Part shown: in pieces, positions 123-27,722 of the stretch
Layout of the letters: each line of letters opens with the position of its first letter
Position numbering within the stretch: the first letter of the stretch is position 1
Origin: a virus
IMG/VR virus record: IMGVR_UViG_3300032220_000699
Coordinates: 96,001 to 160,000 of that record
Direction: 5' to 3' (one strand)
Length of the DNA stretch: 64,000 nucleotides
The notes under the pieces: model-generated
What the model was told of the DNA's origin: nothing
The model's database searches: none
The model's input: only the letters and a program-made list of their open reading frames with translations
Translations under genes and position numbers: made by a program

Positions 123-387
123 TGTAAGGAAAGAGAAGGTCCACCTGCCTATTTGGGTAATAAGGACTCCGTCATGATCGGGAGAGCAGGTGGCTTGGAA
201 GACCGAAGTCAACCAATGACCCCATCGCTAGTCAACTTAGGCTAACCGCTGTTAGGCGGCGAGCTTCAGCTGAGGTGCGAACTGTGCATCATTTGCGGCA
301 GTTATTGAGTTTGCTAGATTTACGTCATTCGCCTGACGTGTCGTTCCTTATCCACTAGTTATGCGCTGTCGAAACCTGTACATCCCC
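123..387 (-). ncRNA. ssrA: tmRNA coding piece of a permuted two-piece gene; tag (A)ANDAQFAPQLKLAA*
   Basis: Starts GGGGATGTACAGGTTTCGAC at 387; resume context ATAACT GCC GCA AAT GAT; tag frame 299/296-252 ends LAA-TAA; 3' boundary approximate. Confidence 0.93.
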
Positions 388-504
388 ATCAGAGACAGTC
401 TGAACCAATCGGTCACAATTAACACGTTGACTGCGGTTTTATCCGGAGGCGCTTAACTGTAAATGCCGTTCGCCTTAAACAAGCAAACGCAACCAGACTG
501 TCTT
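388..504 (-). other. intervening segment of the permuted tmRNA precursor
   Basis: Lies between the CCA end (505) and the GGGG start (387); closed by a perfect 10-bp stem 393-402/494-503. Confidence 0.8.
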
Positions 505-580
505 TGGTGGAGATGGGGGGAATCGAACCCCCGTCCAACACACTTTCATTTCTAAAGTCTCAGAGAGTTACCTCTCCATA
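505..580 (-). ncRNA. ssrA: tmRNA acceptor piece (T-arm plus CCA)
   Basis: GACGGGGGTTCGATTCCCCCCATCTCCACCA; CATCTCC pairs with GGGGATG including G3:U70; TGTGTTG pairs with CAGCGCA; 5' boundary approximate. Confidence 0.9.
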
Positions 581-599
581 CGACAATATTCCTTCGCCA

Positions 600-1120
600 T
601 TGATGAGCATGGGCCGAAGATTGAAGCTAGTTAGTCCTCGGGCATTCTATCCCGAATTAGATGCTCTCACATCCCACTTGTTTTAAAGTTCCTGGTGAGA
701 GACCAGATCCTCTTTGTCAAGCGTTTACGTCAATGTCCGTAGAACTAAAAAGCAAACTTGCCTGGTTACACATCCAGGTTGCTGGGATTAAGCAATGCGA
801 ACGGATCTACATTTCAATAGTCCGGTTGTTAATCGAATTACACTTATAGATGAGCGACATCTATAAGACACTTGTGAAAGGTCCCACTTTCATCAAGAAC
901 TGAGCATGTAAGAGCTAAAGATATGGCAGTGGAGAGATCATGTTTAGACGTGACCATGACCCCTAAACCCCACTATTCTGTCTCGATGTAGCAGACCGCG
1001 ATATCCACATCATCGTCGAGCCATATCCTTAGCAAACTAGTCGGGATTCGTCCTAGCCTTAGACGATATCTCTCCGAGATAGTGAGGAAGTTGAACCTCA
1101 CATAAATCCCTTACTCGTAG
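600..1120 (-). ncRNA. candidate large structured ncRNA, family unassigned
   Basis: About 520 nt with no credible ORF, many hairpins and two crossing long-range helices. Confidence 0.6.
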
Positions 1121-2090: not shown

Positions 2091-2166
2091 TGGCCTCCCG
2101 TAGACGGTTCGAACGTCTGACCTGAATCTTAGAAGGATTCTGCTCTTCCAACTGAGCTAACGGGAG
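2091..2166 (-). tRNA. tRNA-Arg(TCT)
   Basis: CTCCCGT/ACGGGAG acceptor stem, GAATC-CTTCTAA-GATTC anticodon arm, TTCGAAC T-loop, CCA. Confidence 0.93.
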
Positions 2167-16689: not shown

Positions 16690-17015
16690 TACAACTAGTA
16701 GGCGAAAGGATACTTGGCAGTACACTTTCGGCTACTACTCTGAATTCTATCCAGAGCACTAGATTTAACACCGATAGTCAGATGGGCCTTATCCGACAAT
16801 GGCGCCGGTTGCTTCTCACTGCGGCTAAACGGTTTCCAAAGAAAGGATACCAACGCGGCTAGAGAAACAGCTTCAAGTCCAATTGAGTTTACCCAACACT
16901 CAAAAGTTCCTGCGTACAGTTTATGACTGGGTTGTCAAACTTGTATAGGACGCGCGCTTTACACTGTTAGTTAGCGGACGAACATTTGGCAAACAGCATG
17001 GAGCTATAAGCCAAA
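16690..17015 (-). ncRNA. candidate structured ncRNA between tRNA-Asn and tRNA-CAT
   Basis: About 325 nt without an ORF, own ACATATATA motif at 17019, several hairpins. Confidence 0.45.
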
Positions 17016-17131: not shown

Positions 17132-17174
17132 ATTACGTTACTCTTTTCAAATAATACTGGAAACTAGTAACTTT

Positions 17175-17642
17175 TTAATATGGTTTAGGAATAGGTCCAA
17201 AAACCTCAAAGATTTCTAGGGCTTGACTATTACCTTCGTAGGCCCAGTAATTCATATTGTTAACTTGTAACCATTTTCTATTAGGTTCAGTGTCATCCCG
17301 GCATTCAGCAGGGAAGAAAGGACCATTTGTTCCTTTGCTACAAACCCAATAATAATGATTAGCTATTAACTGATTATTAGAAGTGATCTTCTCGAAATGA
17401 AGATTGTTTTTCTCCGGATCTCGAGATTTCAATAAAGCTTCGATCTGGTCAACCAAAGCTATGCGTTTATTGAGTTCTTCATCATTATCCAAAATAAATG
17501 GATATTGTTTATCTTTATACCAAACTGACAACTTCACACTGTTATCAGAGTAGTACAATGCATGTGCTTTATTTTCACCAGGAGGAAGTCGTCTGTGCAA
17601 TTCTTGTAGAACTACACCAATAGAAGTTGACATTGTAGTCAT
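17175..17642 (-). CDS. hypothetical protein
   Basis: 155 aa; coupled to the dcd stop. Confidence 0.6.
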   Translation of the reverse strand: MTTMSTSIGVVLQELHRRLPPGENKAHALYYSDNSVKLSVWYKDKQYPFILDNDEELNKRIALVDQIEALLKSRDPEKNNLHFEKITSNNQLIANHYYWVCSKGTNGPFFPAECRDDTEPNRKWLQVNNMNYWAYEGNSQALEIFEVFGPIPKPY

Positions 17643-26664: not shown

Positions 26665-26736
26665 TTTATTCTCCTTGGTGGTGAAAGATGAAAAAGTATA
26701 GACAGAGGTTAACCTCTGTCTATACTCTTTTAGTTG

Positions 26737-26821
26737 TGGTGGACCGGGCATGATTCGAACATGCGAAGCACGAGGCGTCAGATTTACAGTCTGATGGGTT
26801 TGACCGCTCCCCAACCAGTCC
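26737..26821 (-). tRNA. tRNA-Tyr(GTA)
   Basis: GGACTGG/CCGGTCC acceptor stem, TCAGA-CTGTAAA-TCTGA anticodon arm, long variable arm, CCA. Confidence 0.95.
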
Positions 26822-26838
26822 AGAGTACTACAAATGTT

Positions 26839-26926
26839 TGGCGGAGGCGGTGAGATTCAAACTCACGAAGGGTTTCCCCTTGCTGGTTTTCAAGACCAGT
26901 GCAATCGATCGCTCTGCCACACCTCC
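26839..26926 (-). tRNA. tRNA-Ser(TGA) with A19/U56 in place of G19/C56
   Basis: GGAGGTG/CGCCTCC acceptor stem, CTGGT-CTTGAAA-ACCAG anticodon arm, T-loop TTTGAAT, G73-CCA. Confidence 0.88.
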
Positions 26927-26927
26927 T

Positions 26928-27413
26928 TTAATCTTTATATTTAGTTCCATGCTGTCCATATTGATTTGCAGCATTGTATTTGGATCTACAAGATCTGCTA
27001 CAGCATAAATCATCTGTAACTTTTATTCTGTCTTTATACTCACTGTCTGAAAGATAAAACAATTCATTACAGTAAGAACAAGGTAATATATGATAGTTAA
27101 GCAATTCTTCAAACTGCTTCAACTCATATTTCTTTTTGTTTTCCTCAGATGTAAGAACCTGAAGATTATTAATATCATCGTTGGTTTTATCATCGTCCTT
27201 ATGATCTACTTCTTCATCAGGAGTTAATAAACGATCAAGTTTATCTTCCATCATTACTCTTGATAGAGCTTTAGACGGAGTGTTACCTTTTTCAAAATAG
27301 ATGACGCATCTTTTCCTACCATCCTTACTTTCATAAGGACCTAAGATGTTTTTGCATCCATATAGCTTCTTCAGCTTTTCTTTGTCAAATGGTATATCTG
27401 TTTCTTTCGACAT
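26928..27413 (-). CDS. HNH homing endonuclease, paralog of 2157-2621
   Basis: VDHKDDDKTNDDINNLQVLT; CSYC...CCSRSC. Confidence 0.88.
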   Translation of the reverse strand: MSKETDIPFDKEKLKKLYGCKNILGPYESKDGRKRCVIYFEKGNTPSKALSRVMMEDKLDRLLTPDEEVDHKDDDKTNDDINNLQVLTSEENKKKYELKQFEELLNYHILPCSYCNELFYLSDSEYKDRIKVTDDLCCSRSCRSKYNAANQYGQHGTKYKD

Positions 27414-27470
27414 AATGATACTAACTGTATTGCGACAATTAATATATATGTCATTAATTAGTATTCTATT

Positions 27471-27502
27471 GGAGGTGCTTTCAACCGCTCAGCCAAACCT
27501 CC
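27471..27502 (-). pseudogene. 5' fragment of a tRNA-Ser-like gene
   Basis: GGAGGTT TG GCTGAGCGGTTGAAAGC ACC: acceptor strand plus complete D-arm, no anticodon or T arm. Confidence 0.75.
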
Positions 27503-27527
27503 TTTTCCAATCTATTATGTAAACTAG

Positions 27528-27722
27528 TTAATTTTTAATGAGTCTATGGTGATGGAAGTCACAACAAACTACATTTGTGTCAGAACTAAAGTGTTCGATT
27601 AATTGATTATTCTTAAACCTAGTTTCTTTAATTAGTTCAAGAGTATTTAGCATTTGTTCTTCCATTTTATCCATTACTTCATTAAGCTTTATAAGATCTT
27701 TAAGCTCAACAGACATGATCAC
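27528..27722 (-). CDS. hypothetical protein
   Basis: 64 aa, coupled to the upstream gene. Confidence 0.5.
   Translation of the reverse strand: MIMSVELKDLIKLNEVMDKMEEQMLNTLELIKETRFKNNQLIEHFSSDTNVVCCDFHHHRLIKN

Follow-up and report, generated by a model that had tools for sequence, protein, structure and literature searches.

How does a virus come to carry the first part of a transfer RNA (tRNA) gene directly in front of an HNH endonuclease gene that is itself followed by a complete tRNA gene? We addressed this question in a stretch of 64,000 nucleotides (nt), hereafter the window, which covers positions 96,001 to 160,000 of the IMG/VR virus record IMGVR_UViG_3300032220_000699, a single contig of 189,134 bp with 37% G+C. 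The window holds this arrangement twice on its minus strand, once with tRNA-Ser (27502-26839, the Ser cassette) and once with tRNA-Arg (2698-2091, the Arg cassette). Our analysis makes it probable that both sites are free-standing homing-endonuclease cassettes and that each overwrote an older tRNA gene whose isotype was that of the present one, Ser(UGA) in the first case and Arg(UCU) in the second.

The first-pass annotation of this DNA had described, in the order of transcription, a 5' tRNA stub, a promoter motif, an HNH gene and a complete tRNA-Ser, and had reported the same layout at 2091-2698. In the Ser cassette every element was found in its place, with 1 nt between the HNH stop codon and tRNA-Ser(TGA), and the same order was confirmed for tRNA-Arg(TCT) in the Arg cassette (Table 1). 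In the latter the HNH open reading frame (ORF) and the tRNA overlap by 10 nt (window 2157-2166), the stop codon TAG forming nt 8-10 of the tRNA. Overlaps of this kind, with the stop codon at the same tRNA position, are present at about 10 other loci and involve five different tRNA isotypes. The Ser fragment, initially placed at 27502-27471, has tRNA identity over 29 nt (27502-27474), because real tRNA-Ser genes agree with it only through nt 29 and diverge after that point; the final 3 of the original 32 nt are not tRNA-like.

Exact matches to a 21-mer of the Ser stub in bacterial genomes always begin at tRNA nt 8, and 77 of the 85 fall in tRNA-Ser genes called by ARAGORN (66 TGA and 11 CGA). 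For the other site, a pattern was built from the stubs of the window and of the related loci L008 and L006, and the missing D-stem strand was added to it; of its 60 IMG/VR matches, 56 fall on tRNA-Arg, 42 of these being TCT. Because of these matches, both stubs are identified as 5' ends of tRNAs whose isotype is that of the complete tRNA behind the HNH gene, so that two isotypes were affected, as claimed at first sight. A chance origin of the stubs is excluded. An exact search of IMG/VR for the Ser stub gave no match, and the stubs were invisible to Rfam, which matched only the full tRNAs in the two cassettes. The acceptor strands of stub and resident tRNA are completely different at the Arg site and differ at nt 7 at the Ser site. 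Since these strands differ, the idea that the element supplies a replacement 5' half had to be abandoned, and its alternative, the supply of a whole tRNA, was retained.

Each stub is followed by ACATATATA, a motif found in 28 copies in the genome. Twenty-seven copies lie on the coding (minus) strand, which carries nearly all genes of the region. In most cases a T-rich, TTGAA-like element precedes the copy by about 12-14 nt and a ribosome-binding site with a start codon (ATG) follows it; tRNA-Leu is also directly preceded by the motif. A 10-mer of this motif occurs 4 times in the window, against 0.46 expected. On the basis of this distribution we accept ACATATATA as the putative promoter motif of this phage. 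A different motif, the tRNA leader, precedes each stub. It is composed of AAAAA, 1-3 nt, WACTAG and about 25 further nt, and it starts at the stop codon of the upstream ORF. The coding strand of the 189-kb genome has three copies, one ahead of tRNA-Asn and one ahead of each of the two stubs, and a short form was found before tRNA-CAT. The presence of this leader implies that the stubs occupy places where tRNA genes of this phage normally begin. The leader may be a tRNA-specific promoter or a processing signal.

Table 1. Features of the two cassettes and associated elements in window coordinates.
Feature	Position	Strand	Basis and remarks
Ser site: tRNA leader motif	27503-27536	minus	Motif search of genome; extends from the stop codon of a 64-aa ORF to the Ser stub; alignable with the leader before the intact tRNA-Ser of relative L009
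Ser site: 5' stub of older tRNA-Ser (UGA type), 29 nt	27474-27502	minus	Acceptor strand, complete D-arm, first 2-3 nt of the anticodon stem
Ser site: ACATATATA, core of phage promoter motif	27443-27451	minus	Predicted from the motif to drive the HNH gene, tRNA-Ser and the tRNA-Tyr behind it
Ser site: HNH endonuclease gene, Ser copy, 161 aa, intact	26928-27413	minus	Pfam HNH_3 32.4 bits; phrog_14913 E = 2.7e-22
Ser site: near-identical 53-nt block over catalytic motif	27160-27212	minus	51/53 identical to 2392-2444
Ser site: complete resident tRNA-Ser(TGA)	26839-26926	minus	ARAGORN; Rfam tRNA 51.1 bits; ortholog of L009 tRNA-Ser by alignment
Ser site: tRNA-Tyr(GTA), same transcription unit as tRNA-Ser	26737-26821	minus	ARAGORN, Rfam
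Ser site: strong terminator hairpin closing the unit	26695-26726	minus	14-bp stem, then T run; -26.1 kcal/mol, z = -8
Arg site: tRNA leader motif	2699-2740	minus	Motif search of genome; conserved in relative L008
Arg site: 5' stub of older tRNA-Arg, 22 nt	2677-2698	minus	Acceptor strand and D-arm up to the D-loop
Arg site: ACATATATA promoter core	2652-2660	minus	Motif search
Arg site: HNH endonuclease gene, Arg copy, 154 aa, intact	2157-2621	minus	Pfam HNH_3 39.1 bits and zf-FCS; phrog_14913 E = 2.6e-38
Arg site: complete resident tRNA-Arg(TCT)	2091-2166	minus	ARAGORN; Rfam tRNA 48.8 bits; acceptor strand unrelated to that of the stub
tRNA leader motif before tRNA-Asn	17132-17177	minus	Motif search of genome

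Empty sites and the layout across the family

If a cassette broke an older tRNA gene, relatives without the HNH gene were expected to have an uninterrupted tRNA that starts with the stub. This was seen for tRNA-Arg(TCT) in Kuravirus and for tRNA-Leu(TAA) in Seunavirus. In Kuravirus (phiEco32-like coliphages), an HNH homolog is present in about 9 records, and 97 records match the flanks. The HNH-free phages Bas88, MN05, SU10 and phiEco32 have an intact tRNA-Arg(TCT). Among those with the HNH gene, O18-011 retains exactly nt 1-27 of this old tRNA and Bas91 retains nt 1-19; in both, a ribosome-binding site and the HNH gene come after the stub, and then a tRNA-Arg(TCT) that differs from the old one, its acceptor stem included. 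The flanks then rejoin, the sequence of SU10 just past its tRNA matching that of Bas91 just past the new one. In Seunavirus, the HNH-free FENT2 and EC152 have an intact tRNA-Leu(TAA), of which R7 and PVP-SE1 retain nt 1-29, with the HNH start codon immediately after it and a different tRNA-Leu(TAA) that overlaps the HNH stop codon. Judging from these alignments, the part of the old tRNA that runs from about nt 28-30 to the 3' end has given way to the cassette in both genera.

With its 29 nt, the Ser stub of the window ends at the junction also seen in Kuravirus and Seunavirus. The shorter Arg stubs (window, L008, L006 and Bas91) look like the result of later erosion, a reading that rests on the comparison of O18-011 with Bas91. 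The invasion point, first put near the D-arm, is thus better placed after it (about nt 27-33) than within it. The 5' scar of an invaded tRNA that had been proposed is what the HNH-free Kuravirus and Seunavirus reveal, as the stub is the start of their intact tRNA, and in fuller examples a 3' piece survives as well.

SU10 also has an unannotated tRNA-like sequence of about 120 nt (L077:905-1025), with a T-arm and a CCA end, just past its tRNA-Arg. The start of this sequence is conserved in Bas91.

The layout was then followed through the HNH family. Protein search gave 275 HNH relatives and profile search gave 68 IMG/VR loci; 60 loci were non-redundant. A tRNA on the same strand lies within 60 nt of the HNH gene at 49 of the 60. 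It starts no more than 60 nt from the HNH stop codon at 34 loci, often overlapping the stop, and ends no more than 60 nt upstream of the HNH start at 24. Orphan 5' stubs were searched with a profile of tRNA 5' ends. The zone upstream of the HNH gene, defined as the 245 nt before its start on the same strand, makes up 3.6% of the sequence and contains 17 of the 31 matches (p ~5e-17). Both the neighbourhood of tRNAs and the 5' fragments expected next to HNH homologs were therefore found.

At eight loci (L006, L007, L011, L036, L046, L060, L064 and L067), an orphan 5' piece upstream is accompanied by an orphan T-arm-plus-acceptor piece downstream, and the acceptor strands of the two pieces pair at 6-7 of 7 positions. 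Since the bracketing pieces are complementary, each of these loci holds one old tRNA gene split by an inserted cassette. The insert contains a complete tRNA and the HNH gene in six of the eight. L006 has a stub homologous to that of the Arg cassette and a 3' piece behind its tRNA-Arg, pairing 7/7.

Two further arrangements were noted. In one sub-family (L048, L053-L055, L058, L063 and L064) the spare tRNA stands before the HNH gene, the order being stub, sigma-70-like promoter, complete tRNA-Leu(TAA), ribosome-binding site and HNH gene. In Acinetobacter phage Bestia there is an unannotated tRNA-like sequence (L003:1852-1945) directly past the HNH stop codon, with matching acceptor ends and a CCA end, which is not called by ARAGORN.

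The nuclease and its genomic setting

Both HNH proteins belong to phrog_14913 and exceed the cut-off of Pfam HNH_3 (PF13392), which is 24.8 bits. HNH_3 and a zinc finger were the only domains found by Pfam in the cassette proteins, with no GIY-YIG domain. The catalytic beta-beta-alpha-metal HNH motif is present, its D-H and N residues being invariant in 29 family members. Both ORFs keep all family-invariant residues, the Ser copy having all 14 of those in the family alignment. The structure model of the Arg copy has a predicted local distance difference test score (pLDDT) of 92.6, and its best match in the PDB is I-HmuI (1U3E; Foldseek E = 2.6e-3, probability 1.00, 125 aligned columns). The C-terminal part is similar to zf-FCS / eL24-type zinc ribbons. 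Because the ORFs are intact, the family-invariant residues are kept and I-HmuI is the best structural match, the nuclease looks functional.

The two HNH copies of the window are members of two deep branches of the family tree. Their proteins are 39% identical, and outside a shared block their genes are about 50% identical in DNA. The block lies over the catalytic motif; the near-identity first noticed over about 45 nt is real and extends over 53 nt, of which 51 are identical (27212-27160 and 2444-2392). Within it, the Arg copy is closer to the Ser copy than to its own orthologs, and the block probably arose by gene conversion between the two genes inside this genome. Isotype labels are clustered on the family tree (33 changes vs 41.7 in shuffles), yet switches are frequent. 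The Ser copy is found on a long branch within a tRNA-Leu-associated clade, a placement that is only a hint. No match to the locus was found at the nucleotide level among 50,697 phage records, and single-protein locus searches in IMG/VR gave none either.

ARAGORN calls six tRNAs and one transfer-messenger RNA (tmRNA) in the genome, all within the window. A virion protein is distant kin of jumbo-phage proteins, with Bacillus phage AgentSmith as top match (45%). The phage-encoded tmRNA (window 161-639, minus strand) matches the Rfam permuted tmRNA (102 bits) and beta-proteobacterial tmRNA (96 bits) families, and its tag is given by ARAGORN as AANDAQFAPQLKLAA. It lies 1.5 kb away from the Arg-copy HNH gene, whose stop codon is inside a tRNA. 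There is also a stretch of about 320 nt without an ORF at window 16690-17010 (minus strand), with 46% G+C against 36% for the window. It stands behind a ACATATATA promoter, between tRNA-Asn and tRNA-CAT, and its first bases are similar to the 5' end of tRNA-CAT; an Rfam scan of this stretch gave no match. A third, decayed cassette at this place was ruled out, as no HNH remnant was found there and the genome holds only two copies.

Origin of the stubs and competing explanations

The cassette proposed here would have three parts: the phage promoter, the I-HmuI-like HNH gene, whose product has a C-terminal zinc ribbon, and the complete tRNA. The tRNA-specific leader with the first 22-29 nt would be the remains of the old gene. 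The target of the nuclease would be the cognate tRNA gene in its HNH-free form, nicked or cut around nt 27-33, where the D-arm meets the anticodon stem. During mixed infection this break would be repaired from the HNH-bearing genome, and the nuclease gene would be copied in together with its linked tRNA allele, which presumably is not cut and maintains the decoding function. The first insertion into a new tRNA gene would occur by one-sided or illegitimate repair, stranding the 5' piece and sometimes a 3' piece. The tRNA and the nuclease mRNA would be co-transcribed, and tRNA processing would trim the latter; for the Arg copy, RNase P would thereby cut away the stop codon, leaving a message without a stop and probably a low nuclease output. 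We infer this mechanism from the established behaviour of T4 SegB and of other endonucleases that are free-standing (PMC2330249, PMC13096335).

Among the relatives of this phage, L008 has the Arg cassette including leader, stub and promoter. Its stub differs from that of the window at 4 of 22 positions and the next 57 nt differ at 2, which fits a decaying relic. The HNH protein of L008 is 69% identical to the Arg copy, and the neighbouring gene is 71% identical. The tRNA-Arg(TCT) of L008 (3568-3642) and that of the window have the same acceptor stem and a different D-arm, anticodon stem and T-arm. As these alleles stand in orthologous cassettes, the tRNA appears to have been exchanged again in one lineage.

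The relative L009 has a virion protein 66% identical to that of this phage, and the small ORF before the Ser site is common to both. In L009 the leader is followed directly by an intact, resident-type tRNA-Ser(TGA), with no stub, and the position of the Ser stub is exactly that of the 5' end of this tRNA-Ser. Behind it, L009 has a terminator, then the promoter motif, then an Arg-clade HNH gene at the place taken in the window by tRNA-Tyr and two ORFs. Sporadic presence and an identifiable empty site, which are found for the homologs in Kuravirus and Seunavirus, are therefore found in part for this phage. Two histories are consistent with these sequences. Either the stub-type allele is ancestral and L009 later lost stub and HNH gene, or the stub arrived with the cassette from a related donor.

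Several observations weigh against the overwriting of an older gene at these two sites, or against the proposed mechanism. L009, the one relative of this phage found to lack an HNH gene in front of tRNA-Ser, has no stub there, as expected; contrary to the prediction, its tRNA-Ser does not begin with the stub sequence, and no intact stub-type allele of tRNA-Ser or tRNA-Arg was found in the relatives of this phage examined. At the Ser site of the more distant relatives L201 and L202, found via the virion protein, there is a DNA ligase gene and a tRNA is absent. Of the old tRNA, neither window cassette retains a 3' piece. The 5' strand of the D-arm is the same in the old and the new tRNA-Arg, so that the resistance of the resident allele cannot lie there, and scoring the D-arms of cassette tRNAs for deviance as a sign of immunity gave mixed results. 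About 24 of the 60 family members lie just downstream of an intact tRNA with no stub directly before the HNH gene; insertion into the body of a tRNA is therefore not the sole mode. Finally, no cleavage or homing data were found in the literature for any member of this HNH family.

The second of the two histories for the Ser site leads to the strongest competing explanation, in which the stub was made earlier in a related donor, and stub, promoter and HNH block homed in together behind the leader of an ancestor like L009. The resident-type tRNA-Ser directly behind the same leader in L009 speaks for it, as do the D-arm of the Ser stub, which is unlike both resident-type alleles (window and L009) at 9 of 29 positions, and the fact that co-conversion of flanks is normal for free-standing homing endonucleases (PMC2330249). 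However, the leader before the stub is that of this phage group, so that the donor must have been a close relative, and a loss of stub and HNH gene in L009, with the repeated 5' ends recombining, is equally conceivable. With one relative available, import from a donor is plausible but rather unlikely. An older origin would make the cassettes fixed residents, with HNH genes that are idle or domesticated and stubs left over from one ancient event. The Arg cassette would suit this explanation, since it is shared with L008 down to stub and promoter and its HNH gene has diverged about as far as its neighbour. It is nevertheless improbable: both ORFs are intact with all invariant residues, presence in Kuravirus and Seunavirus is sporadic, the Arg-clade HNH copy of L009 has another location, downstream of tRNA-Ser, the orthologous cassette of L008 is followed by a different tRNA-Arg allele, and the probable conversion tract between the two copies is recent.

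The stubs might also be functional RNA or DNA elements rather than scars, for instance tRNA-like hairpins acting as processing, termination or regulatory signals for the HNH transcript. Both can form a hairpin using the acceptor strand, and both stand immediately upstream of the HNH promoter. Yet the hairpin energies are ordinary (z = -1.4 for Ser and +0.3 for Arg), stub length and end point vary among loci from 19 to 33 nt, the stub has diverged from that of L008 more than the adjoining sequence, and in HNH-free relatives the same sequence is the plain start of an intact tRNA, all of which makes a function of this kind very improbable. Least credible of all is an intron within a tRNA gene, with the HNH gene as the intron ORF and the stub as the 5' exon. 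Group I introns with HNH ORFs are common in phages, and at several other loci ARAGORN, when introns are allowed, connects the stub with the 3' piece on the far side of the HNH gene. In the window, however, the 3' exon is missing and a complete tRNA with its own acceptor stem follows; permissive Rfam scans of both cassettes gave no intron family, and each HNH copy has its own ACATATATA promoter, which marks both as free-standing. Taken as a whole, the first interpretation of this locus as a mobile HNH element that invades tRNA genes is largely supported, and homing cassettes that overwrote an older tRNA gene are the explanation retained here.

Known systems and biological meaning

T4/T6 SegB is a homing endonuclease of the free-standing type in a tRNA gene cluster, absent from close relatives (PMC2330249; PMC13096335). 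It targets tRNA genes via a conserved T-loop motif and drives the co-inheritance of neighbouring tRNA genes; its ORF abuts a tRNA, and tRNA processing is thought to limit its expression (PMC2330249; PMC13096335). The cassettes resemble SegB in having a nuclease gene among phage tRNA genes and abutting a tRNA, and the broken tRNAs point to tRNA targeting here as well. SegB is, however, a GIY-YIG and not an HNH enzyme, and neither the 5' stub of a broken tRNA nor a same-anticodon replacement has been reported for it. The junctions described here, at tRNA nt 19-33, are far from the T-loop, which argues for a different site, although junctions are not a cleavage map. According to a 2004 paper cited in PMC2330249, F-TflI/II/IV of T5 are HNH-type site-specific enzymes with ORFs inside the phage tRNA gene cluster. 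They are not close relatives of the present family, as no T5-like record is among the 20 phage records that matched the Ser-copy protein. No report of a stub-plus-spare-tRNA layout for these enzymes was found in the sources covered, which did not include the primary paper.

Other comparisons are more distant. I-HmuI is an HNH nicking endonuclease encoded in a group I intron of the polymerase gene of Bacillus phage SPO1, and it ends in a helix-turn-helix. The present family shares with it an HNH_3-type core and an N-terminal sheet domain, but phrog_14913 members are free-standing, have a C-terminal zinc ribbon (zf-FCS / eL24-like) and would target tRNA genes. Intronless homing by T4 SegF, SegG and MobE also places the nuclease gene beside its target, the donor allele being resistant and co-converted with the nuclease gene. 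There the target stays whole, whereas here it is truncated and a complete second copy does its job. Genomic islands and prophages that integrate into tRNA genes likewise restore a working copy. They do so with a tyrosine or serine integrase and an att core, duplicating the 3' part of the tRNA; the cassettes have neither an integrase nor a direct repeat, they strand the 5' part, and the tRNA that they supply is whole. HNH genes are the only ORFs in the two window cassettes, which have no 3' piece.

Free-standing homing endonucleases in phage tRNA clusters are thus already known (SegB; T5 F-TflI/II/IV), and the stub-plus-spare layout was not found in the literature. Our search found no paper on an HNH cassette that breaks a tRNA gene, leaves a 5' stub and supplies a spare with the same anticodon. 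We suggest tentatively, at a little under even odds in our judgement, that the HNH family is a widespread and undescribed class of mobile elements, composed of a nuclease gene and a spare tRNA, which overwrites same-anticodon tRNA genes across unrelated phages and drives rapid turnover of tRNA alleles.

The HNH-bearing and HNH-free Kuravirus of the BASEL collection, which infect E. coli K-12, offer a tractable system, and the family might yield nucleases with tRNA-gene specificity. Cassettes of this kind would account for mosaic phage tRNA clusters, stray tRNA pieces, odd tRNA alleles and HNH ORFs that run into tRNA genes. If the proposal is true, the tRNA alleles they carry may be selected to escape the nuclease and possibly also tRNA-cleaving defences of the host. 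Homing endonucleases are usually tolerated because they reside in introns or inteins or beside their target. The recurrence of one layout in many unrelated phages suggests how an element can disrupt a useful gene while its carrier keeps the function: the target gene would be broken outright and a complete spare copy would pay for it, a third route to harmless invasion.

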